A DNA stretch of 64,000 bases from an uncultured Bacilli bacterium (GCA_934096075.1 CAKOLN010000003.1:26184-90183), one strand, 5' to 3'. Positions 2,158-14,963 are shown, numbered from the stretch's first letter. Notes: a model not told the origin generated them from the letters alone. Translations and numbers: made by a program.

Positions 2158-3384
2158 ATGAAGAAGTTTTTTAAAAGTTTAATAATATTTATTTTAATGT
2201 GCCCTTTAATAACAAAAGCATTTGAAATTGAAGGATTATATTCTAAAAATGTCTTAGTCTACAATTTAGATGAAGATAAGATTTTATATAATGTAAAAAG
2301 TGAAGATAAAATTAGCATAGCAAGTCTTACAAAAATAATGACTACAATAGTCGCTATAGAAAATATTGAAAATTTAGATGAAACCATAACTATAACTTCT
2401 AAAATGTTAGATGACATTCCATATGATGCATCAACCGCAGGATTAGAAGTTGGAGATAAGGTAACTTATAAAGATTTGTTATATGCAAGTCTTATACCTT
2501 CTGGAGCTGATGCAACTCAATCATTGGCAGTTTCGATCTCAGGTTCAGTATCTAAATTTGTAGAACTTATGAATAATAAAGCAAAAAGCTTAAATATGAA
2601 AAACACTCACTTCGTTAATACTACAGGACTAGATGCAGAAGGACATTATTCAACACTAGAAGACATACTTATTTTAATAAAATATGCCTTAAAAAATGAA
2701 ACATTTAAATCAGTATTTGAAACAAAATCATACACAACTACAAACAATATTAAACTTAAATCAACATTAGATTATTATAATAGAGATTTTAATTACAACA
2801 TATCTTATGTATTAGGATCAAAAACAGGTTTTACTGATGATGCAGGCCTATGCCTATTAACTTTATCAAATGTAGATGACACAAATATCATTACAATAAC
2901 AGCTAATGCACCCTATTCTTATGGTAACTCTAAAAACATGATGGACCTAAACACAATAAAAACATCATTAGATAAATCATTTGAAAAAGCAACACTCATA
3001 ACTGAAAACGAGCAACTAATAGTATTAAATACGAAATATGCTAAAGAAAAAGAAATAAAAATAACATCTCCTTCCGAAATAACTAAATATGTAGAAAAAC
3101 CTTTCAATAAAGATAAAATAAAAACTGAATATACTGGAGAAAAAATAATATCATACAAAACAGAAAAAGGTACTAAACTTGGAGAAATAAAAATAAGTTA
3201 TAATGATGAATTAGTAGATATAATTGAAGTTAAATTAGATAAAGATTTACACTTTAGTTTATGGGTATTTATTAAAGATAATATATTGCTAATCACTATA
3301 GTAATCATAGTATTTCTAATGCTTCTATTAATAATTAGAAAATCTAAAAAGAAAAGAAAGAGACTAAGAAAAATGAGACGATAA
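2158..3384 (+). CDS. D-alanyl-D-alanine carboxypeptidase (PBP5/DacB-type serine peptidase S11) with C-terminal TM anchor and K/R tail
   Basis: Signal peptide; SxxK motif (SLTKIM), SxN-like region and KTG motif (KTGFTDDAG); C-terminal hydrophobic segment followed by KKKRKRLRKMRR. Confidence 0.8.
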   Translation: MKKFFKSLIIFILMCPLITKAFEIEGLYSKNVLVYNLDEDKILYNVKSEDKISIASLTKIMTTIVAIENIENLDETITITSKMLDDIPYDASTAGLEVGDKVTYKDLLYASLIPSGADATQSLAVSISGSVSKFVELMNNKAKSLNMKNTHFVNTTGLDAEGHYSTLEDILILIKYALKNETFKSVFETKSYTTTNNIKLKSTLDYYNRDFNYNISYVLGSKTGFTDDAGLCLLTLSNVDDTNIITITANAPYSYGNSKNMMDLNTIKTSLDKSFEKATLITENEQLIVLNTKYAKEKEIKITSPSEITKYVEKPFNKDKIKTEYTGEKIISYKTEKGTKLGEIKISYNDELVDIIEVKLDKDLHFSLWVFIKDNILLITIVIIVFLMLLLIIRKSKKKRKRLRKMRR

Positions 3385-3398
3385 GTCTCTTTTATTAT
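3352..3398 (+). repeat. Direct repeat copy 1 (47 nt): stop codon plus rho-independent terminator hairpin of dacB
   Basis: aaaagaaagagactaagaaaaatgagacgataagtctcttttattat; 46/47 identical to 4397-4443. Contains a hairpin (gagact...agtctc) followed by a T-run. Confidence 0.8.
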
Positions 3399-3461
3399 AC
3401 TAAAACATATGATATAATTAATTTGAGACAAACTTAAAAGAGAAAAAATATAAAGAAAGGA

Positions 3462-4412
3462 GTGAAAGAAATGATTGATTTTTCTACTTCAATTGAAGAA
3501 TTAAATAGTTATAAGGGATCAGAAAAAAAGAAAACCTTAATTTACAATGGAAAAAAATATTTAGTAAAATTTCCAGATCCAATAAGAGAAAAAAATAAAA
3601 CAATTTCATATATAAATAATGCTTTTTCAGAATATGTAGGAAGCAATATCTTTAAATTACTAGGATTTGAAACTCAAAATACATTACTAGGTATTTATAA
3701 GTACAATAATAAAGACAAAGTAGTATGTGCTTGTGAAGACTTTACTGACAGTAACCACGAATTGTATGAATTTGAAAATCTTGCACTAAGTACTAATCCC
3801 GATAAAAAAATTCAAACTGAATTAAATGACATAATGGAAGTTATTAATTGGTTGACTAATTCAAAAGATATTAAATTGTATATAAATGATAATATAAAAG
3901 AAAAGTTTTGGAATATGTTTATCATAGACTGCTTAATTGGAAATACCGACAGACATAATGGCAACTGGGGATTATTGGTAAACACTAAAACTAAGGAAGC
4001 AAGTTTTTCACCAATATATGACTGTAGTTCTTGTTTAAATCCAATGTTAGATGATGAGGAATTATCTAAAATAGATGAAATAGAGTTAAAAAATTTAGCA
4101 ATTAATTCATATTCATGTCTTAAAGAAAATGGAAAAAAGATAAATTACATCACTTTCATAAAAAATGCAAAAAACGAAGACTGCAATAAAGCTTTATTAA
4201 GAGTATTTAAAAAAATTAACATAGAAGAAATTAATGACTTTATAGATAGTATAAAAGGAATATCAAAAACAAGAAAAAACTTTTATAAAAACATAATTAA
4301 TTATAGATATAATATATTAAATAAAATACATAAGAAAATAGTTAATTCAAGATATAAAGTAATTAGGGAATCTTATGATAAAATAAACATTGATAGAAAA
4401 GAAAGAGACTAA
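3462..4412 (+). CDS. HipA-like Ser/Thr kinase domain protein (HipA_C / CtkA / HipT-like, short form)
   Basis: 316 aa; the catalytic-loop motif CLIGNTDRHNGNWGLL matches the HipA_C GNxDxHxxN signature. No adjacent HipB/HipS-like small ORF. Own promoter (TGaTATAAT at about 3408-3420) and RBS AAAGGAG. Confidence 0.6.
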   Translation: MKEMIDFSTSIEELNSYKGSEKKKTLIYNGKKYLVKFPDPIREKNKTISYINNAFSEYVGSNIFKLLGFETQNTLLGIYKYNNKDKVVCACEDFTDSNHELYEFENLALSTNPDKKIQTELNDIMEVINWLTNSKDIKLYINDNIKEKFWNMFIIDCLIGNTDRHNGNWGLLVNTKTKEASFSPIYDCSSCLNPMLDDEELSKIDEIELKNLAINSYSCLKENGKKINYITFIKNAKNEDCNKALLRVFKKINIEEINDFIDSIKGISKTRKNFYKNIINYRYNILNKIHKKIVNSRYKVIRESYDKINIDRKERD

Positions 4413-4443
4413 GAAAAATGAGACGTTAAGTCTCTTTTATTAT
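4397..4443 (+). repeat. Direct repeat copy 2 (47 nt): terminator duplicated after the HipA-like gene
   Basis: aaaagaaagagactaagaaaaatgagacgttaagtctcttttattat. It is read in a different frame from copy 1, and here supplies the last codons and stop of the HipA-like ORF. Confidence 0.8.
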
Positions 4444-4546
4444 GTCTAATTCTATCAAATTTCAAAAAAATTCTAGTAATTTCCCCTATTTATGTGCTAT
4501 TATATATATACTAGCGGAGTATTGACTTAAAATTGTACCAAATCTT

Positions 4547-5040: not shown

Positions 5041-6390
5041 ATGGCAAGAAAAGAACCACAAAGTATTGAAGCAGAAATAAATGCTTTAGGATGTGCGTTC
5101 TTAAGTAAAAGTGCTTTAGACAAAGTATGTGAAGAATTAACCATGCCTATGTTTTACCTAGACGGTCATAAAAAAATATTTGAAGCATTATTAAATTTAA
5201 GAAGTACAGACACTGCAGTAGATATAACAACTGTAACTAATGAATTAGAAAGAACTAAATCACTTAGTTCAGTAGGCGGAATAGACTATTTAACTGAAAT
5301 AGTAAATTCAGTCGCAACACCTGCTAACTTAGAATACTACATAAAAATAATATTTGAAAAATACGTATTAAGATGTCTAATAGAAGAATCAACTAAAATA
5401 ATAGATGAATGCTATGATGAATCAGAAGATTTAAATTCTATAGTTGAAGATGCAGAAAAAAGAATTCTTGGAGTAAATAGTGATAGAATGATTAAAGATA
5501 TCAAACCTATTCAAGAAGTCTTAGTAAAAGCACAACAAGAAATAGAATCACTATCTAAAAATGGTGCAGACATAACAGGTGTACCTAGTGGATTTAAAGA
5601 CTTAGATAGAAGAACAGCTGGATTTCATGGCAATGAATTAATTATCTTAGCTGGTCGTCCAGGAATGGGTAAAAGTGCCCTTGCTATAAACATGGCAACA
5701 CATATGACAATAAATGCAAAAAAGTCAGTAGCCTTATTTAACCTAGAAATGGGAGCAACTCAAATAGTAAACAGAATGTTCTCATCCATTGGACAAATAG
5801 ATGGACAAAAACTAAGAACTGGTAGACTAGATCATATGGACTGGAAAAAATTTAACGAAGCATTAAGTCTACTAGCAGATACTAAGTTTTTTATAGATGA
5901 TACACCAGGAATAACAGTCGCAGAAATAAGAAGCAAATGTAGAAAATTAAAAAATAGTGATAAAGGTCTAGACTGTATAATAATAGACTACCTACAACTA
6001 ATAAGCAGTTCAAATAAGTACTCTGGACAAAGAACTAATGAGGTAAGTGAAATATCAAGAGACTTAAAAAAACTAGCAATGGAGTTAGAAGTGCCAGTAA
6101 TCGCCCTTGCACAACTATCTCGTGGTGTGGAACAAAGAGAAGACAAACGACCTTTAATGAGTGACTTAAAAGAAAGTGGCTCAATAGAACAAGATGCAGA
6201 TATTGTAATGTTCATTTATTGTGATGACTATTACAAATTCAAATCAAAAGAAAGACCTGCACTATCACCAACAGAACTAATAATTTCTAAACACAGAAGT
6301 GGTAGTACTGGTACAGTAGATTTAATTTTTGAAAGAGAACATGCTAATTTCAAAAATTATCTAAGAAGTGAGGAAAAAGAAAATGAATAA
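5041..6390 (+). CDS. dnaB: Replicative DNA helicase DnaB (DnaC in Bacillus nomenclature)
   Basis: 449 aa; Walker A GRPGMGKSA, RecA-like C-terminal domain, N-terminal DnaB domain; conserved synteny downstream of rplI. Confidence 0.92.
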   Translation: MARKEPQSIEAEINALGCAFLSKSALDKVCEELTMPMFYLDGHKKIFEALLNLRSTDTAVDITTVTNELERTKSLSSVGGIDYLTEIVNSVATPANLEYYIKIIFEKYVLRCLIEESTKIIDECYDESEDLNSIVEDAEKRILGVNSDRMIKDIKPIQEVLVKAQQEIESLSKNGADITGVPSGFKDLDRRTAGFHGNELIILAGRPGMGKSALAINMATHMTINAKKSVALFNLEMGATQIVNRMFSSIGQIDGQKLRTGRLDHMDWKKFNEALSLLADTKFFIDDTPGITVAEIRSKCRKLKNSDKGLDCIIIDYLQLISSSNKYSGQRTNEVSEISRDLKKLAMELEVPVIALAQLSRGVEQREDKRPLMSDLKESGSIEQDADIVMFIYCDDYYKFKSKERPALSPTELIISKHRSGSTGTVDLIFEREHANFKNYLRSEEKENE

Positions 6391-7846: not shown

Positions 7847-8607
7847 TGAAAATCCATATACTAGGAAGTGGATCTAAAGGAAACTCTACATTTATAGATT
7901 TAGGAAACAAAAAAATCTTAATAGATGTAGGGTTTTCCTATAAACATATAAAAGAACAACTATCTAAAATAAACATAGATCCTAAAGAAATAGATGCTGT
8001 TCTAATAACCCATGACCATTCAGATCACACATATGGACTACCTGTATTTATAAACAAAGTTAACCCATTATTATATATAACTCCAGAAGTAGAAGAAGTA
8101 ATACTGAAAACACCTTACGAAAAAAGTATCTATTTAGGTGATGAATTATATATAGATGACGCTATGATAAAAGTAATACCTACATCTCATGATGCATTAA
8201 CATCAAATGGTTTTCTAATAGAAAAAAATAATGAATCTCTAGTATACATAACAGATACTGGTTACATAAATCAAAGATACTTTAAATTCCTACAAAACAA
8301 AACATACTACATAATAGAAAGCAACCATGATACCGAAAGATTAATAAAAGGAAGGTATCCAGAATATTTACAAAGAAGAATACTTAGTGATAAAGGACAC
8401 CTATCTAATGAATTATGTGCAGGTTATCTATCTAGATTTATCGGACCAAATACAAAAAAAGTTGTACTAGCACACTTATCAGAAGAAAATAATACAATAG
8501 ATTTAGCTTTAAACACAACTGAGTCAGTACTTAAAGAAAATAATATAAGTTTTTCAAACATAACATGTGCAAGTCAAACAGAATTAACCGAGGTAACTAA
8601 TGATTAA
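7846..8607 (+). CDS. MBL-fold metallo-hydrolase (YycJ/WalJ-like)
   Basis: 253 aa; HDHSDH motif; its position before rlmH matches yycJ-rlmH synteny in Bacilli. Confidence 0.75.
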   Translation: MKIHILGSGSKGNSTFIDLGNKKILIDVGFSYKHIKEQLSKINIDPKEIDAVLITHDHSDHTYGLPVFINKVNPLLYITPEVEEVILKTPYEKSIYLGDELYIDDAMIKVIPTSHDALTSNGFLIEKNNESLVYITDTGYINQRYFKFLQNKTYYIIESNHDTERLIKGRYPEYLQRRILSDKGHLSNELCAGYLSRFIGPNTKKVVLAHLSEENNTIDLALNTTESVLKENNISFSNITCASQTELTEVTND

Positions 8608-9037: not shown

Positions 9038-9120
9038 GTTTTTACTTTTAAAATCATACTAGTTTATTTTAACCAAACATAATATAATATAAGTATAAAT
9101 AAAAAGATAAGGAGAACAAA

Positions 9121-9603
9121 ATGAAGAAAATATTCTTAATTGCAATTTGCATACTTATAATAGGATGTCAAAAAGAAGAAAATATTTATACTATAAAAGC
9201 AAACATTGAGGAAAATATTCTTAAGAATAAAGACTACAATAATTTAAGTTCATGTAAAATTGATGAAATCAATAATACAATAACTATAGAATTAATCAAT
9301 AATAGTGAAGAAGAACAAGAATGGTTTAAAAATAATATATCAAATTCAAATAAACTAATATTTAAGCAAGGAAAAGAAATTAAACAAGAAGAACTAACTT
9401 ATGTTTATAATTATATTAACGATTACATAAATTCAAATGGGCAAATAGAAAATTATACAGGTCATTACATAGATGAAATATGTAATAGTGTTGTAGTGAG
9501 TTTATTAGAAAATAACCAAAAACATCAAAATAATTTTAAACAAAACATAATTGATTCTAATCTAATAGAATTTAAAAAAGGAAATTATGGTATAGACCAA
9601 TAA
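9121..9603 (+). CDS. Lipoprotein, function unknown
   Basis: Lipobox LIIGC at residues 13-17; 160 aa, N/E/K-rich. Confidence 0.6.
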   Translation: MKKIFLIAICILIIGCQKEENIYTIKANIEENILKNKDYNNLSSCKIDEINNTITIELINNSEEEQEWFKNNISNSNKLIFKQGKEIKQEELTYVYNYINDYINSNGQIENYTGHYIDEICNSVVVSLLENNQKHQNNFKQNIIDSNLIEFKKGNYGIDQ

Positions 9604-9632
9604 CAAGTATCTACTCGAACTAGATACTTTTT
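9601..9632 (+). terminator. Rho-independent terminator (copy A), identical to 12382-12415
   Basis: taacaagtatctactcgaactagatacttttt: 8-bp stem agtatcta/tagatact, 7-nt loop, T-run. Confidence 0.8.
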
Positions 9633-9687
9633 AACTTGCTTAAAAAAATATTGTATTATATAATTTAAGTAGAAAGTAGGGAATGTA

Positions 9688-12384
9688 ATGAAAAAAATTA
9701 TTTATGTTTTAATGGGATTAATTATTATAATAAGTCCTAAATTTTTACAGGCAGAAATACCAGATGACTTTAAAAATTTACCAATTTATGAAAAAAATAA
9801 TAATTACTACATAGATGTAAATGTGGTAAATCCACAATATTTTATAGATAACTATTGCGTACAAGAAAATAAACAATGGAGTGACATTGAAAACTGTAGA
9901 GATCAAAAGTACTTTTTATTAATCAATATGCTTCAATCATCTCTTAAATTAGATGAAAATTATTTTTATAATGTTAACTCAACAGCTGAAACAATAACTA
10001 TTTATAATAAAGAAACAAGTACAGAGATAACAACATATTTAAATTTTAAGGATGCTGAAATAGCTATAGTAAAATCTTTAGCAACCTATAGAATAAATAA
10101 TAAAAACTATAGAAGTTATAATGTTTTACCAGCAATAAAATATACATTGGCATACAATGAAAACAAAAATAAAATATTATATAATCGCGAACTTAATACA
10201 ATTTTGTCTAAAAATGGAATGACAATCGAAATAGATAGTAATTTAACTAATTATCCAAAACAAATTAAGTATAATATATTAAAAAATGGTGTTATTTACT
10301 TTTCAGATTATATATATAGTGATTTTTATTACACCCTTCATGTTGAACCTATAACTTATGAAGAAAGACTAGATGAATTAAGTGATGAATACATAAAAGA
10401 AACCATATCAAAATTACTAAAAAACTATTTTAAAAATAGTACTATTACGATAGGAACATTAAATAGAGACACAAAACAATTAGCAATTACAATAGATTCA
10501 ATAGATTTTAATTTCAATTTAATAGTTGATAAAAATAAAATGTATGACTTTAATGAACATAACGAAACTTATTCTGACAATAACATTTATTTAGAAGATA
10601 TAAATAACCAATTTTCAGTAGATACAGCTTTTATAACAGAAGATGTAACTAATAAAGTAAAATTAACTAATATAAATATTGAAAGTGCCTATGAATTAAA
10701 GCTAAATGAATTAGAAAGTAAAAAAACAGTTACTAATTTTGATAATAATGTTATGATATACCTTCCAACTAATAAAGAAAAACTTGTTGGAGCCGAAGTT
10801 ACAGTTAATTACTACAAAGACTACTTATCAAAAGGTGAAAAACTTAAGGGGTCAATAGTTAATTATAACAATAAGACTTATGTAAAAATAGAAACAAATA
10901 AAGTTGGTATCTATGCTATAGATAATACACCTTACTTAGGAGATTCTTTAAAAGACTTACCAATAACTATAATTGATAATGATCATTTTCTAATAACATT
11001 TGATACGGTAGATCCAAAAATAATAGTAAAAGAAAGTCATATGTTTGATTTAACACCAGAATATAAAGAAAAAATATTTAAAGAGGCATATGTTTCAATT
11101 TATGATTCAACAACAGGAAATTATAAAGAAGTTACTGATCCTGATGAGAGAAAAAAAGTAATGACAGATGAATGGTACAACAAATATATAGAACAAGAAA
11201 AGAATGGTTATGTTAATTCAATAATAGATTTATATGTCAAGAAGGTTAACCCAAAAGCAGAAATTTTATACGCTTTAGCAAGTAACACACGCAATACGGA
11301 AATTTTATATACAAAACAATATAATAAAAAAGATTTTGAATCTGCTACAAATATACTTAATAAAATAAAAGATAAATATGAAACAAAAGGTTTAAGAGCG
11401 ATAAATTCAATTAGATTATATGGCGCACAAGATGCTGTCTTTGAAAATAATGATAAAGCACTTTATATATTTGATGATTTTAAAGAATATGTAATGTCAG
11501 TACCTGAAGAATATGACTTTGTATTTAGTATCGGTGGAACTGGTGGAGGAAACGGTGGCGGAGGAAATGAAGTAACCGTTGGAATTGTAAAAGATGGAAC
11601 ACTATTAAATGTTGGACATACATCATTTTCTTATGAATATTTTCTATATGTTGATAAAAAACAACCAGGAACAACTTTAGAAAAGGGACTAGAAATTCTA
11701 AAAAAATACTTCAAAAATTTACCTTTTGAATATAAGGAAGTAGAAGGATATAAAGATGATTGCTTAATAGATTACTCAGAAGAAGAATGTGGAGAATTCA
11801 TAGAATTAACAATAGACGGAAAATTTACATTAGCACTTATCAAAGAAAAAGAAGACTACAAAATAGAAGATAATTATGTAAGAAGTAATGATGAACATGT
11901 GGCTATAGAAAGTGATTCATACGATGTAGCACCGGATACAGTTGTTAAAAGCGAAAATGTATCTGATAACAAGGAATTAAAACACTTTGGTTTAGAAAGT
12001 GCATTCGATATCAAATTAATTCAATTAATAGGTGGAATATATAAAAAGAATATAGATGGAACTGTTACAGTGTACTTACCTACTATAAGAAAAAATATAG
12101 GAGAAAAAGTAAAAATCTATTATATAAAGGACGATTATACTATAGGAGAAACTTTAATAGGAGAAGTAGTAAAATATAATAACAAATATATGATTAAATT
12201 TGAAACAAATCACTTTAGTATATATGGCATAGAAAAAATGAATTCAAAAATTAATTCAGAAGAAATAGAAAATCCACAAACTGGGGATAATATTTACAAC
12301 TCATTTATTATACTAGTAACAAGCATACTATCCATATCGCTTATAATAATAAGCCAAATTAAAAAACAAAAAAATAACTATTAA
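9688..12384 (+). CDS. Large cell-surface protein with class B sortase-type NPQTG sorting signal
   Basis: 898 aa; signal peptide; internal Gly-rich GGTGGGNGGGGNE; C-terminal NPQTGD followed by a hydrophobic TM segment and the basic tail KKQKNNY, which is a canonical cell-wall sorting signal. NPQT(G/N) is the SrtB-type motif. Confidence 0.7.
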   Translation: MKKIIYVLMGLIIIISPKFLQAEIPDDFKNLPIYEKNNNYYIDVNVVNPQYFIDNYCVQENKQWSDIENCRDQKYFLLINMLQSSLKLDENYFYNVNSTAETITIYNKETSTEITTYLNFKDAEIAIVKSLATYRINNKNYRSYNVLPAIKYTLAYNENKNKILYNRELNTILSKNGMTIEIDSNLTNYPKQIKYNILKNGVIYFSDYIYSDFYYTLHVEPITYEERLDELSDEYIKETISKLLKNYFKNSTITIGTLNRDTKQLAITIDSIDFNFNLIVDKNKMYDFNEHNETYSDNNIYLEDINNQFSVDTAFITEDVTNKVKLTNINIESAYELKLNELESKKTVTNFDNNVMIYLPTNKEKLVGAEVTVNYYKDYLSKGEKLKGSIVNYNNKTYVKIETNKVGIYAIDNTPYLGDSLKDLPITIIDNDHFLITFDTVDPKIIVKESHMFDLTPEYKEKIFKEAYVSIYDSTTGNYKEVTDPDERKKVMTDEWYNKYIEQEKNGYVNSIIDLYVKKVNPKAEILYALASNTRNTEILYTKQYNKKDFESATNILNKIKDKYETKGLRAINSIRLYGAQDAVFENNDKALYIFDDFKEYVMSVPEEYDFVFSIGGTGGGNGGGGNEVTVGIVKDGTLLNVGHTSFSYEYFLYVDKKQPGTTLEKGLEILKKYFKNLPFEYKEVEGYKDDCLIDYSEEECGEFIELTIDGKFTLALIKEKEDYKIEDNYVRSNDEHVAIESDSYDVAPDTVVKSENVSDNKELKHFGLESAFDIKLIQLIGGIYKKNIDGTVTVYLPTIRKNIGEKVKIYYIKDDYTIGETLIGEVVKYNNKYMIKFETNHFSIYGIEKMNSKINSEEIENPQTGDNIYNSFIILVTSILSISLIIISQIKKQKNNY

Positions 12385-12415
12385 CAAAGTATCTACTCGA
12401 ACTAGATACTTTTTT
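12382..12415 (+). terminator. Rho-independent terminator (copy B), duplicate of 9601-9632 including the preceding TAACAA
   Basis: ttaacaaagtatctactcgaactagatactttttt. Confidence 0.8.
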
Positions 12416-12486: not shown

Positions 12487-13353
12487 ATGAATAAGAATAA
12501 AAAGAATATAATAAATTTATTTATGTTTATAATAGGTATAACAATAGTATCAATAACATTTAATACTTTGTGTGTTCCAAAAAACATAGTAATTGGAGGA
12601 GTTAGTGGAATAGCAGTAATATTTAATTACTTATTCAAAATAGATGTTACGACTACATTACTTATTGGAAACATATTATTAATAGTAATGGGAGTATTAG
12701 TACTAGGATTTAAAGATACAATACCAAGTATCATTGGCTCATTCATATATACATTAGGAGTATATCTAACTGAAAATCTAATAACAGTACAAATTGATTC
12801 AATCTTTCTTAACATAGTAGCTGTAGGAGTATTATATGGAATAGGATGTACCTTAATATATCTAGCAGGTTATTCAACAGGTGGAACTGACATACTTGGA
12901 ATAATATTTCAAAAAAAATTAGGGTATCCATTAGGAAGAGCATTACTAATAATAAACATACTAATCTTAATATTTGGTACAGTAGTATTTGGACCTGAAA
13001 TGCTAATAATAGGACTTGTTATAAGATACTTAGAAAGCAGAATAATAGATAACTTCCTAATTGGAATAAGTGACTCTAAAGTATTATTCATAAATACTGA
13101 AAAAGAAGAAGAAATAAATAATTATATAATACATGAAATAAAAAGCGGAACAAGTGAAATAAAAATAAAAAGTGGTTATAAAGGAATACATAAAAATTTA
13201 TTAATGTGTGTAGTACCTACAGAAAAGTATATGCTATTAAAAGAAGAAATAAAGAAAATAGACAAAGATGCTTTTATAACTGTACTAGATGCATATGAAG
13301 TATATGGTGGTACAAATAGGTATAAACTACCATTACATGACCTAAGAATATAA
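12487..13353 (+). CDS. YitT-family membrane protein (DUF161 plus DUF2179)
   Basis: 288 aa; multiple TMs and a C-terminal soluble domain, as in B. subtilis YitT/YpjC family proteins. Confidence 0.6.
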   Translation: MNKNKKNIINLFMFIIGITIVSITFNTLCVPKNIVIGGVSGIAVIFNYLFKIDVTTTLLIGNILLIVMGVLVLGFKDTIPSIIGSFIYTLGVYLTENLITVQIDSIFLNIVAVGVLYGIGCTLIYLAGYSTGGTDILGIIFQKKLGYPLGRALLIINILILIFGTVVFGPEMLIIGLVIRYLESRIIDNFLIGISDSKVLFINTEKEEEINNYIIHEIKSGTSEIKIKSGYKGIHKNLLMCVVPTEKYMLLKEEIKKIDKDAFITVLDAYEVYGGTNRYKLPLHDLRI

Positions 13354-13377
13354 TGTATAATTGAAGTGGAGGTAAAA

Positions 13378-14064
13378 ATGAACTTAATTGAAGTGAGAAA
13401 TGTATATAAACAATATAGAAATGGTGTAACAGCCTTATGTGATATAAATCTTTCAATACCTAAAGGAGACTTTGTTTTTGTCATCGGATCAACAGCATCA
13501 GGTAAAAGTACACTAATAAAATTACTATATAGACAAGAAAAGCCAACTAAAGGAGAAGTATATGTAGGTGGAATAAATGTAGCAAAACTAAGAAACAGAA
13601 AAGTTTACATACTTAGAAGAAAAATAGGTATAGTATTCCAAGACTATAAACTATTACCACAAATGACTGTATTTGAAAATGTTGCATTTGCATTAGAAAT
13701 ATATGGATTACCAGAAAAAGAAATAAGAAAAAAAGTAATGACAGCCATAGAAAAAGTAGGACTAAAAGAAAAATTTAGAAGTTATCCAGATGAATTATCA
13801 GGTGGAGAACAACAAAGAGTATCAATCGCAAGAGCAATAGTAAATAACCCTAAAATACTAATATGCGATGAACCTACAGGTAATCTAGATCCAGACACAT
13901 CAATGGGAATAATGGAAATAATAAATAAAATAAATGAAGAAGGAACAACAATAATAATGGCAACACATGATAAAGACATAGTTAACAAATACAAAAAAAG
14001 AGTAATAACTTTAGAAAAAGGTATCCTTATTGGAGATAAAGAAAAAGGAGGATACAGTAAATAA
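13378..14064 (+). CDS. ftsE: Cell-division ABC transporter ATP-binding protein FtsE
   Basis: P-loop GSTASGKST, ABC signature LSGGEQQRVSIARA, Walker B ILICDEPT. GGAGG RBS ahead of the ATG at 13378; the ORF-track start at 13366 is an upstream in-frame GTG. Confidence 0.9.
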   Translation: MNLIEVRNVYKQYRNGVTALCDINLSIPKGDFVFVIGSTASGKSTLIKLLYRQEKPTKGEVYVGGINVAKLRNRKVYILRRKIGIVFQDYKLLPQMTVFENVAFALEIYGLPEKEIRKKVMTAIEKVGLKEKFRSYPDELSGGEQQRVSIARAIVNNPKILICDEPTGNLDPDTSMGIMEIINKINEEGTTIIMATHDKDIVNKYKKRVITLEKGILIGDKEKGGYSK

Positions 14065-14963
14065 TGAAAGCATTTAGAATATTAAGAAATAATTTAAAAG
14101 ATGGATTTAAAAGTGTATTTAGAAACTTTTCTCTAAGCCTAGCAAGTATAAGTTGTATAACAATAACTTTAATCTTAGTAGCCGTTTCAATAATACTATC
14201 AGAAAACATAAAAAACTTTACTGATGACATAGAAAAAGATGTAACAATAGTAGTATATGTTGATAAAGATGCTACTGAAGATGACAGAAAAGCAATTGAA
14301 CTTAAAATAGACTTCTTAGACAACATAGAAAGTGTAACATTCATGTCAAAAGAAGACATTAGAAAAGACATGGCAAGTGATTCTGATGGTTTAGGTACAA
14401 TATTAAATGAATATGATGAGACAAATAATCCATTATTGGATGAATATCTAGTAAAAGTAAAAGATACTGAAAAAATAGGTGTAACAGCCAAAAAAATTGA
14501 AGGAATAGACAAAGTAAACACAGTTAAATATGGAGAAGGAATGGTAGAAGAATTAGTAAAAATCTTCGACATAGTCAAGAAAATAACACTAGGTATAGTT
14601 GCCGGACTTATAATAGTAACTGCATTCTTAATAAGTAACACAATAAAAATAACTATATCTAATAGAAAAAGACAAATAGAAATAATGAGATTAGTTGGAG
14701 CATCAAACTCCTACATAAAATTACCTTTCTTCTTTGAAGGTATAATACTTGGATTCTTAGGAAGTATACTACCTATACTAATAAGTTGTTATGGTTACAT
14801 AATTCTTTATGATAAACTAGGTGGAATTCTATTTACAGAAGTAATAAGTTTAGTAAGCCCAGAAAAAATATTATTAAACTTATCAATAATATTAGTATCT
14901 ATTGGTGTATTAGTAGGTGCCTTTGGTTCATATAAAGCTGTAAGGAGGTACTTAAAAATATAA
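14064..14963 (+). CDS. ftsX: Cell-division permease FtsX
   Basis: 299 aa; TM1, large extracellular loop, three C-terminal TMs; overlaps the ftsE stop. Confidence 0.88.
   Translation: MKAFRILRNNLKDGFKSVFRNFSLSLASISCITITLILVAVSIILSENIKNFTDDIEKDVTIVVYVDKDATEDDRKAIELKIDFLDNIESVTFMSKEDIRKDMASDSDGLGTILNEYDETNNPLLDEYLVKVKDTEKIGVTAKKIEGIDKVNTVKYGEGMVEELVKIFDIVKKITLGIVAGLIIVTAFLISNTIKITISNRKRQIEIMRLVGASNSYIKLPFFFEGIILGFLGSILPILISCYGYIILYDKLGGILFTEVISLVSPEKILLNLSIILVSIGVLVGAFGSYKAVRRYLKI

Follow-up and report, generated by a model that had tools for sequence, protein, structure and literature searches.

How single accessory genes enter a chromosome with no recognisable mobile element is only partly understood. 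In the 64,000-nucleotide stretch of DNA analysed here (the window), from an uncultured Bacilli species of the human gut, a gene for a large surface protein lies between two copies of a short hairpin-forming sequence. The locus raises the question of whether the gene was inserted there with duplication of its target. A preliminary description of the window had proposed a recurrent process in which a gene is added downstream of a terminator and the terminator is duplicated.

The repeat pair and the gene between its copies

All features described below are on the plus strand. The repeat, hereafter referred to as T1, is present at positions 9601-9632 (copy 1, TAACAAGTATCTACTCGAACTAGATACTTTTT) and 12382-12415 (copy 2, TAACAAAGTATCTACTCGAACTAGATACTTTTTT). 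The copies were originally taken to be identical over 32 nt. The pair is real and both members open with a TAA stop codon, but they are only near-identical: copy 2 is longer by an A within the A-run, which the preliminary description had marked, and by a T, and the exact common core is 28 nt long (9605-9632 = 12387-12414). A search for a 27-nt core with up to three mismatches found only these two places in 64 kb, and 100 shuffled sequences gave no match. Across 1.8 Mb of loci from conspecifics and relatives, searched with up to four substitutions, T1 was confined to orthologous positions; the window and these loci define the scope of all copy-number statements made here for T1 and for the second pair, T2. 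Three matches to the T1 pattern in IMG/VR correspond to the chance level for 18 specified bases.

The TAA of copy 1 (9601-9603) is the stop codon of the ORF 9121-9603, a 160-aa lipoprotein gene whose translation has a signal peptide and a lipobox (IIGC) and gave no Pfam match. The TAA of copy 2 (12382-12384) ends the ORF 9688-12384. A hairpin of 9-10 bp followed by a U-run is present in each copy. Copy 1 has a 9-bp stem (AAGTATCTA / TAGATACTT), a 7-nt loop and T5 (dG -8.2 kcal/mol, z -3.8); copy 2 has the same hairpin with T6 (dG -8.6 kcal/mol, z -4.6). A stable hairpin just 3′ of a stop codon, with T5 or T6 directly after it, is the layout of an intrinsic terminator, although T1 falls below the threshold of a consensus terminator scan because it has only two G-C pairs. 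Judged from sequence, copy 1 is an intrinsic-terminator-like element of the lipoprotein gene and copy 2 is now the predicted terminator of the inserted gene. The downstream neighbour of copy 2 is a gene for a YitT-family membrane protein (12487-13353).

Copy 1 forms the left and copy 2 the right edge of an inserted segment of 2749 bp (9633-12381), which contains a promoter-like region, a ribosome binding site and an ORF up to its last sense codon and has a GC content like that of its flanks. The putative promoter (9636-9664: TTGCTT, 17-nt spacer, TATAAT) was not listed by a promoter scan because its −35 element matches at 3/6 positions. The gene (9688-12384) codes for an 898-aa secreted surface protein with two homologous modules, a member of an uncharacterised protein family from gut Bacillota in which a length of about 500 aa is usual. 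Only two representatives of the two-module form are known, the 898-aa protein and a 999-aa homologue on contig L102, which are 34% identical and come from different organisms. The sense codons of the 898-aa ORF run exactly up to the repeat, and its tail has the usual length for the family. Another candidate family member, P0003 (contigs L100 and L101), in which a MurF N-terminus is joined to the C-terminal 177 residues of the 898-aa protein, was set aside as a probable chimeric assembly because the contigs have 1.7x coverage.

The C-terminal sorting signal (12271-12381) consists of NPQTG (12271-12285, residues 862-866), an Asp, a hydrophobic segment and a KKQKNNY tail. Class B sortase substrates include IsdC, with NPQTN, and proteins with other NP(Q/K)(T/S)(N/G/S) signals. 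The 898-aa protein has their tripartite layout of NPx(T/S)x, hydrophobic segment and positively charged tail; unlike IsdC-type substrates, its gene has neither NEAT nor Isd context. Its family also differs from them in having the consensus NPxTxD, in which P, T and D are invariant across 25 aligned members (alignment A1), the Asp following a variable fifth residue (G/S/Y/F/L). The signal had been assigned to the sortase B class, and this assignment is supported because two homologues, on contigs L119 and L121, directly adjoin class B sortase genes (scores of 167.8 and 188.8 bits; TIGR03064 cut-off, 153.75). The 898-aa protein is accordingly a predicted SrtB substrate, with support at the level of the family. 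The closest homologue of the 898-aa protein, P0004, has lost the sorting motif. No ORF of the 64-kb window has the sortase motif TLxTC, in agreement with the earlier remark that no srtB gene lies nearby; the lack of a sortase gene in the window is a further point of difference from IsdC-type loci.

The same pattern had been noted around 3352 and 4397, and a 49-nt pair, T2, is indeed found there (3350-3398 and 4395-4443, 48/49 identical). T2 copy 1 comprises the last 25 coding nucleotides and the stop codon of a PBP5/DacA-like gene (2158-3384), a GAGAC/GTCTC hairpin and a T-run; copy 2 is the right edge of a second inserted segment (3399-4394), which holds a promoter-like region and most of a HipA_C-like ORF. 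This ORF (3462-4412) codes for a HipA_C-like kinase of 316 aa (Pfam HipA_C, 1.9e-10; PADLOC PDC-M03A, a candidate defence family, 1.8e-32), and T2 copy 2 includes the final six codons of the ORF together with its stop, in a frame differing from that of the PBP gene. T1 resembles T2 neither in sequence nor in length. In the window T2 occurs at the cassette edges only and, with up to four substitutions, it was found only at orthologous positions in the 1.8 Mb of conspecific and related loci.

Empty sites and strain distribution

Conspecific metagenome contigs, 98-99% identical to the window, were used for the comparison of presence and absence that the preliminary description had suggested. Ten of them (L008, L010-L014, L016, L017, L020, L021) have empty T1 sites, in which the lipoprotein gene, a single repeat copy and YitT follow one another. 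The left flank of the single copy is that of copy 1 and its right flank that of copy 2, the YitT promoter region lying directly 3′ of the repeat. The site in L013 reads ...GACCAA|TAACAAGTATCTACTCGAACTAGATACTTTTTT|CCTTCTTAG, and the other nine are the same save for a G/A variant in the loop. Empty sites for T2, with a single 49-nt copy between the PBP gene and rplI, are present in L012, L014 and L133. The conspecific empty sites of both pairs directly support the proposed recurrent addition of genes downstream of a terminator with duplication of that terminator. All four combinations of the cassettes were found: both in the window, the HipA_C-like gene alone in L013, the 898-aa gene alone in L133 and neither in L012. 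Among contigs with identical RlmH about 6 are occupied and about 16 empty, i.e. ~16/22 are without the 2749-bp segment.

T1 copy 2 always reads CAAAG, copy 1 and every empty site CAAG; all empty sites have the form CAAG...T6CC. On the occupied contig L015 the 898-aa gene is 97.9% identical to that of the window, and the flanks are similarly diverged. An allele difference of 2.1% makes this an old insertion within the species. In L015 three positions distinguish the two T1 copies, so that concerted evolution of the copies was rejected. L015 and the empty contig L017 differ by three SNPs in 3.7 kb, with none in the 480 bp leftward, yet their T1 sequences differ; the right flank of L015 comes from another haplotype group. 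An origin of L017 by recent simple deletion from an L015-like ancestor was rejected, the T1 of L017 not being a recombinant of the two copies of L015. The T1 insertion is an old, now segregating polymorphism and not a recent event, and the cassette now spreads between strains by homologous recombination of its flanks.

Outgroup species are without the lipoprotein, 898-aa and HipA_C genes and have other accessory genes in the rlmH-YitT and PBP-rplI gaps. Because the lipoprotein gene is also absent there, outgroups give no direct polarity of insertion or deletion at T1.

The same anatomy was found in relatives. In L022 the genes AbiLi and AbiLii lie between terminator copies of ~50 nt in the same rlmH-YitT slot, and in L079 an AAA_14/DUF4143 gene lies between 33-nt terminator copies upstream of rplI. 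The 999-aa homologue in L102 is flanked by ~60-nt copies that contain the last four codons of the upstream gene, and an OYE reductase gene in L055 by 27-nt copies. Repeat length therefore varies between events, from 27 nt to ~60 nt, and the T1, T2, L022, L079 and L102 repeats have no common sequence. The duplicated target is the intrinsic-terminator hairpin of the upstream gene in 5/6 events. Overall the cargo comprises a surface protein, a HipA_C-like kinase (PDC-M03A), AbiL, PDC-S01 and an OYE reductase, with no restriction-modification (RM) unit. In a permutation control for flanking duplications 6 were observed against 0-2 in 20 permutations, an imperfect comparison, since conspecific loci have sequence in common and coding repeats are among the six. 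A 25-nt pair in L066 was discarded, as it belongs to a REP-like GGGAGGG family in Ruminococcus; such true REP-like hairpin families, seen in the Ruminococcus loci L066 and L092, look different from T1 and T2.

Origin of the duplication

Taken together, the segment 9633-12381 is probably a promoter-plus-ORF unit that was inserted once, in an ancestor of the species, with duplication of about 33 nt of its target. The insertion point would lie immediately 3′ of the T-run of the lipoprotein gene's terminator, and the duplicated target would comprise stop codon, hairpin and T-run. By such a duplication the lipoprotein gene would keep its terminator, the incoming gene would be supplied with both stop codon and terminator, and nothing would be changed in the YitT promoter, which would make the insertion insulated and close to neutral. 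The second event in the window is independent and has an unrelated 49-nt target.

As to the molecular step, we tentatively prefer a recombinase-independent illegitimate insertion at a break, both ends of which retained the hairpin region. The break may have arisen from staggered nicks flanking the hairpin or a cruciform, or at a hairpin-stalled fork with template switching. The ends could have been joined through microhomology (e.g. TAACAA on the right side, the T-run on the left), with the gaps then filled in. Neither a donor nor an intermediate was found. Precise loss of the cassette should be possible as well, by way of the 33-nt direct repeats. Given CAAAG in copy 2 and CAAG elsewhere, pure fill-in requires that one mutation arose early or that the junction fell within the TAACAA microhomology. 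The 898-aa ORF ending exactly at the start of the repeat is somewhat unexpected for a random breakpoint.

A native-looking C-terminus with its stop codon favours the main alternative, which we regard as unlikely: site-specific or Campbell-type integration of a small circular cassette with an attP-like site (...CTAT TAACAAAG-hairpin-TTTTT AACTTGC...) into the chromosomal terminator as attB, the T1 copies being attL and attR. The agent would be RecA, using ~33 nt of homology, or a trans-acting tyrosine recombinase, in which case the cassette would resemble CIMEs or islets that have no integrase. A crossover inside the core would account for both differences between the copies, and no mutation would be needed: copy 1 combines the chromosomal left edge (CAAG) with T5 and AAC, and copy 2 combines CAAAG with the chromosomal right edge (T6 and CC). 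A duplicated 3′ gene end is a usual feature of att sites. The 9-7-9 dyad of the hairpin also has the layout of a tyrosine-recombinase core site, but it is non-discriminating because any intrinsic terminator has a stem-loop layout. Against integration, neither insert, each holding one ORF, contains a recombinase or transposase domain; no integrase or recombinase lies beside them, no cognate enzyme is found among the annotated flanking genes and none is evident among the window ORFs. Since the repeats are unrelated between events and range from 27 to ~60 nt, one recombinase specificity cannot serve all, and the independent insertions do not use one core attachment sequence. Moreover, the repeats contain non-functional upstream coding ends, and each cassette would therefore need a pre-carried copy of its target. 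The 898-aa gene was not found in circular form or at another location (11/11 contigs have the same context), and tblastn gave no match that would indicate a plasmid or phage origin.

Somewhat less probable again is the broader proposal that low-GC gut Bacilli have a dedicated insertion pathway aimed at terminator hairpins, which duplicates the terminator each time. A structure-specific nuclease or a trans-acting recombinase would cut on both sides of the hairpin, and self-contained promoter-ORF cassettes with defence genes or variable surface proteins would be installed; the two-module NPxTxD surface-protein gene would then be a repeatedly mobilised cargo. Both two-module representatives are flanked by freshly duplicated, unrelated local terminators, and about 12 short-form relatives are not. 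Flanking duplication as a general trait of the surface-protein family was rejected, as about 20 short-form loci in a metagenome scan had none.

That a hairpin-recognising transposase moved the cassette in trans and duplicated an inverted repeat is very improbable. An IS200/IS605 element (TnpA and TnpB), with an empty site in L003, lies 7 kb away and is itself directly 3′ of a terminator hairpin. However, IS200/IS605 transposition makes no target duplication and both hairpins of the element leave on excision, whereas here one hairpin copy stays in the empty site; the element is also absent from most cassette-carrying strains. Neither insert (9633-12381, 3399-4394) has terminal inverted repeats or subterminal hairpins of its own, and independent cassettes have no end sequences in common. 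A precedent for duplicating inverted repeats is IS1630 of Mycoplasma fermentans (IS30 family; Calcutt et al. 1999), which, as cited in PMC2853133, is reported to target and duplicate inverted repeats, with 19-26 bp duplications. Like the targets described here, those of IS1630 are terminator-like hairpins that vary in length and sequence, and its host is a low-GC relative of the Bacillota. IS1630 itself has a transposase and terminal inverted repeats, both lacking in the cassettes, and no IS30-family gene was seen.

We give next to no credence to the reading without any insertion-linked duplication, with T1 as a REP-like or generic terminator family (which the preliminary description had itself set against its proposal) or a chance similar pair around an ancestral gene and the empty sites as simple deletions: such deletions at short repeats do occur in the lineage (in L020 the lipoprotein gene was lost between 13-nt repeats, AAC[C/A]AAACATAAT) and true REP-like families exist in the Ruminococcus loci, but T1 and T2 are present only at cassette edges, at orthologous positions, in the 64-kb window and the 1.8 Mb of fetched loci, chance identity over 28-49 nt is excluded (0/100 shuffles), the same anatomy recurs with unrelated sequences, and the T1, T2 and L102 repeats hold an upstream coding 3′ end or stop codon, so that the second copy derives from the first.

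Comparison with known systems

Through insertion with duplication of a terminator, a gene can arrive insulated, with the upstream terminator kept, its own terminator supplied and the downstream promoter untouched. Duplicated terminators are a cheap annotation marker of recently gained islet genes in metagenome-assembled genomes, and they also mark strain-variable defence and surface loci.

In staphylococci SCC elements sit at the 3′ end of rlmH (orfX), and the CIMEs of streptococci are flanked by attL and attR. As in these islets, accessory genes here are flanked by direct repeats that stem from a chromosomal gene's 3′ end and could support excision, and the variable slot, like that of SCC, lies just downstream of rlmH. 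Unlike SCC and CIMEs, the inserts have no ccr or int, the repeat comes from the lipoprotein gene's end and not from that of rlmH, and in place of a fixed core site there is a different local sequence for each event. Integron cassettes are likewise single-ORF units bounded by hairpin-forming sites downstream of each gene. Their attC sites, however, are 57-141 nt long with R/L boxes, whereas the cassettes described here have their own promoter, a 23-nt terminator hairpin, no intI or attI, and two sites that are both copies of the target and not specific to the cassette.

A literature search under "terminator duplication" gave nothing relevant; the pattern is already published under the name "insertion with long target duplication" (Nobusato, Uchiyama, Ohashi & Kobayashi 2000, Gene 259:99; Furuta, Abe & Kobayashi 2010, NAR 38:2428, PMC2853133). 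Furuta and colleagues describe variable repeats of >30 bp around DNA with no genes for mobility, matched by an empty site in a conspecific genome; each repeat is genomically unique, lengths reach ~400 bp, and the molecular mechanism is still unknown (PMC2853133). T2, with 49 nt, lies within this length range, and T1 (32/34 nt with a 28-nt exact core) does so marginally. The ~33-nt repeat is barely above the 30-bp threshold used in the literature for excluding site-specific recombination. The repeats described here, of 27-60 nt, fall near the lower limit of the published range. As in the published class, there is a conspecific one-copy empty site to which both repeats align, the inserts have no mobile-element features, and the repeats can extend into the 3′-terminal part of the upstream gene, as do 46-bp repeats by 15 bp or 2 bp in H. 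influenzae (PMC2853133).

The published class was described for RM units and ascribed tentatively to their DNA-breaking activity (PMC2853133). The cases reported here differ in their uncultured low-GC gut Bacilli host, in their targets, 5/6 of which are terminator hairpins, and in their cargo, which is not RM: the same scar surrounds genes that do not cut DNA, for a surface protein, a HipA-like kinase, AbiL, an ATPase and a reductase. Non-cutting cargo, together with a target that is nearly always a terminator hairpin, speaks for a process that is a property of the host or of the target structure and not of the cargo.

Genes inserted between duplicated terminators

The window comes from a species of uncultured Bacilli known from human-gut metagenomes, Hadza samples among them (MAG contigs CAKOLW010000011 and CAKORV010000023); Clostridium sp. 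CAG:628 and UBA11492 are among the relatives. Genes in the window run in the order GerQ, IS200/IS605 (tnpA, tnpB), PBP5/DacA-like (hereafter PBP), HipA_C-like, rplI, dnaB, M23 peptidase, MBL-fold protein, rlmH, lipoprotein, 898-aa protein, YitT, ftsE, ftsX, PcsB-like and whiA. The 898-aa ORF (9688–12384) is bracketed by two copies of a repeat, T1. Copy 1 (9601–9632, TAACAAGTATCTACTCGAACTAGATACTTTTT) follows a 160-aa ORF (9121–9603) with a lipoprotein signal peptide and an IIGC lipobox; copy 2 (12382–12415, TAACAAAGTATCTACTCGAACTAGATACTTTTTT) follows the 898-aa ORF itself. The TAA stop codon of the preceding ORF (9601–9603 and 12382–12384) forms the first bases of each copy. These positions and the shared stop codon agree with the preliminary description, which had also called the copies identical; this holds for an exact common core of 28 nt, while copy 2 contains one extra A in the A-run and one extra T in the T-run. 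A search of the window tolerating up to 3 mismatches located the 27-nt core at these two places alone, and 100 shuffles never yielded it. In both copies a hairpin of 9–10 bp precedes a U-run (dG −8.2 and −8.6 kcal/mol, z −3.8 and −4.6); in a genome whose G+C content is about 25%, this is a plausible, if weak, intrinsic terminator. The second pair cited previously, T2, was present as well: its 49-nt copies (3350–3398 and 4395–4443, 48/49 identical) surround the HipA_C-like gene (3462–4412) and are unrelated in sequence to T1.

Contigs encoding an identical RlmH were collected and proved conspecific, at 98–99.4% nucleotide identity. The T1 site was occupied in about 6 of them and empty in about 16. 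In contigs without the 898-aa gene, YitT comes directly after the lipoprotein gene, and the site reads GGTATAGACCAA, then TAACAAGTATCTACTC(G/A)AACTAGATACTTTTTT, then CCTTCTTAGTATAG, i.e. the left flank of copy 1, one repeat copy and the right flank of copy 2. Empty T2 sites, consisting of PBP, a single 49-nt copy and rplI, were found in three contigs (L012, L014 and L133). Thus, the predicted presence/absence polymorphism bounded by duplicated terminators is observed at T1 and T2, and the recurrent insertion of genes downstream of a terminator, with its duplication, is supported. Since all four combinations of the 898-aa and HipA_C indels exist, the two insertions were independent events.

Each insert is a complete unit in which a single ORF is preceded by an RBS and a promoter-like region; the putative promoter of the first lies at 9636–9664 (TTGCTT, 17 nt, TATAAT). 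Both inserts begin directly 3′ of the T-run of the upstream gene's terminator. The right end of the first is the last sense codon of the 898-aa ORF, and the HipA_C-like ORF reaches 18 nt into T2 copy 2, where it stops in a frame other than that of the PBP gene. Because T2 takes in the final 25 coding nt of PBP and T1 the stop codon of the lipoprotein gene, the right-hand copy must in each case have come from the left-hand one, as a duplication of the target and not as sequence brought in by the cassette. Domain searches revealed no recombinase or transposase domains in either insert, and neither has terminal inverted repeats.

The IS200/IS605 element (377–2094; tnpA 481–876, tnpB 877–1968) is a strain polymorphism too. 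It is inserted directly 3′ of the GerQ terminator hairpin (AAGGTATCTTAAATGATACTTTTTATTTTGAA); L003 and the majority of the other contigs show its empty site, and no long duplication accompanies the element.

Age and spread of the insertions

The 898-aa insertion is not recent. Between the window allele and that of another occupied contig, L015, 57 nucleotides out of 2694 differ (2.1%), a divergence close to that of the flanks, and the two T1 copies of L015 differ from each other at three positions. A third allele, in L133, carries a nonsense change of CAA to TAA at codon 544 (L133 7620–7632) that leaves a 543-aa product, P0002, which suggests relaxed selection. In the same contig about 280 bp of unrelated sequence (5125–5406) separates rlmH from the lipoprotein gene, and the HipA_C-like gene is missing.

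Strains with and without the insertion are interspersed across the strain tree. L015 and the empty contig L017 differ by 3 SNPs in 3.7 kb, with none in the lipoprotein gene, yet differ at T1, and the right flank of L015 is that of another haplotype group. The window differs from its nearest empty relative, L013, by 0.64% upstream and by 2.3% in the lipoprotein gene. The insertion has spread by recombination of its flanks, and the simplest reading of these comparisons would be a single ancient insertion, after which occupied and empty alleles were swapped among strains by homologous recombination. Exact loss of the cassette through the 33-nt direct repeats is possible.

Other rearrangements were noted around these sites. 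In L020 (CAKOLW010000011; 10470–10540) the lipoprotein gene is mostly deleted between 13-nt direct repeats AAC[C/A]AAACATAAT (window equivalents 9075–9087 and 9541–9553), so deletion between short direct repeats operates at this locus. Contig L002 matches the window at 100% identity from PBP to the end of the 898-aa gene but at only 86% over YitT-ftsE-ftsX (L002 10534–13011, window 12487–14963; 316 mismatches, 27 gaps); this segment, which adjoins the cassette, has the appearance of DNA imported by recombination from a divergent lineage. Downstream of whiA, the DUF218 gene of the window is replaced in three strains (L010 13769–16438, L016 9234–11904, L012 13816–15166) by genes for 142-aa and 296-aa proteins and an ABC transporter, in L012 also with an IS3-family (rve) element; the right junctions of these variants fall beyond the fetched loci. 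In two species the 27-nt sequence TGTGAATAACTTAAAACTTATTAACAA occurs twice, 450–600 bp apart, just 3′ of whiA (L022 12785–12811 and 13232–13258; L026 15234–15260 and 15838–15864), and may reflect a further old duplication or serve as paired regulatory sites.

More distant species are devoid of the lipoprotein, 898-aa and HipA_C genes. Their rlmH-YitT and PBP-rplI gaps are either empty or contain accessory genes of quite other kinds (AbiL, a RelB-like antitoxin, lipoproteins, a 770-aa surface protein, ClpB), which marks both gaps as hot spots of gene gain.

The 898-aa protein and insertions of the same anatomy

The 898-aa product consists of a signal peptide, two homologous modules and a C-terminal sorting signal (NPQTG-D, a hydrophobic segment and KKQKNNY). 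Close relatives are essentially confined to its own species. A full HMMER scan revealed 83 distant relatives, mostly of about 500 aa, from low-GC gut bacteria. In the family alignment the sorting consensus is NPxTxD, with P, T and D invariant and the fifth residue variable. In two other organisms (loci L119 and L121) a family gene adjoins a sortase scoring above the curated cut-off of TIGR03064 (class B sortase). The SrtB-type assignment made earlier from the NPQTG signal is thus supported, by gene neighbourhood, at the level of the family. As had been noted, there is no sortase gene nearby: none was found within the 64-kb window.

Direct repeats flanking genes were scanned over 1943 ORFs and intergenic regions of the fetched loci, with variable slots inspected by hand. 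Further events of the same anatomy were found, each with a different local repeat. In the rlmH-YitT slot of UBA11492 (L022), terminators of about 50 nt (5946–5995 and 8028–8074) flank AbiLi and AbiLii (PADLOC 6.8e-79 and 9.1e-26; Pfam AAA_21 and RloB). Three tandem units of ~37 nt, each with a small hairpin (GTCCAATATAATGGAC-like), lie just 5′ of this cassette (5838–5945). In L079, an AAA_14/DUF4143 gene (PADLOC PDC-S01, 2.5e-59) with a 33-nt terminator copy on each side separates a SASP gene from rplI. Ahead of the consensus TTGACA-17-TATAAT promoter of this ATPase cassette, AAATTACCGAA occurs four times in direct orientation (4396–4540), and these copies could be operator sites. An OYE-family reductase gene in L055 lies between 27-nt copies with no hairpin. 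In L102, copies of ~60 nt (~85% identical), which take in the last four codons and stop of the upstream gene, surround the gene for P0004. This 999-aa protein, 34% identical to the 898-aa protein over the full length, is the only other two-module member of the family; about 20 loci with the short form have no flanking duplication. The HipA_C-like protein of the window matches the candidate defence family PDC-M03A (PADLOC, 1.8e-32). Defence or candidate defence genes account for half of the cargos, surface or metabolic genes for the other half.

L100/L101 (238–1533) encode a predicted protein of 431 aa, P0003, in which a MurF-like N-terminus is fused to the C-terminal 177 residues of the 898-aa protein; T1 and YitT come next. 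Since contig coverage is about 1.7x, a chimeric assembly is likely, with a real rearrangement the lesser possibility.

Origin of the duplication and known systems

How the target became duplicated is an inference. Our tentative preference, held at somewhat less than even odds, is for illegitimate insertion at a break whose two ends both kept the hairpin region. Staggered nicking on the two sides of a hairpin or cruciform could produce such a break, as could template switching where a fork stalls at a hairpin; joining would then rely on microhomology, provided by TAACAA at the right end and by the T-run at the left, before the gaps were filled. The main rival, a single RecA- or recombinase-mediated crossover in which a circular cassette carrying a site almost identical to the chromosomal terminator recombined with it, appears unlikely. 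It alone accounts without mutation for CAAAG always being found in copy 2 and CAAG in copy 1 and every empty site, and it also accounts for the native-looking C-terminus of the ORF, but each cassette would need to have carried a copy of its own target beforehand, non-functional coding ends included, and no circle, donor or recombinase was found. A dispersed REP-like element, which the preliminary description had weighed against insertion, is unsupported: within the 64-kb window T1 and T2 are limited to the cassette edges and, with up to 4 substitutions allowed, to orthologous positions in 1.8 Mb of fetched sequence. Selection probably sharpens the pattern, as the insertions that persist would be those keeping the upstream terminator, supplying one to the newcomer and sparing the downstream promoter.

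The class "insertion with long target duplication" was named by Kobayashi's group and described first from H. pylori, with later cases from H. influenzae, Neisseria, Campylobacter and others; it was defined on restriction-modification (RM) genes and tentatively tied to their double-strand-breaking activity (PMC2853133). The present cases share its structure but carry no RM genes, and the 898-aa insertion is a clear, population-verified example with non-RM cargo from an uncultured gut Bacilli species. What the present cases add is that the duplicated target is usually the terminator hairpin of the upstream gene. IS1630 of Mycoplasma fermentans, as cited in PMC2853133, also targets and duplicates inverted repeats; it bears a transposase and terminal repeats, whereas the window cassettes have neither. 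SCC-type and CIME-type att-flanked islets and integron cassettes resemble our cases in the direct repeats or hairpins around accessory genes, but depend on a recombinase, none of which was found among the annotated flanking genes, and on a fixed core site, which the present events do not share. Most intriguing of what is left over, both two-module members known so far lie between freshly duplicated, unrelated local terminators.
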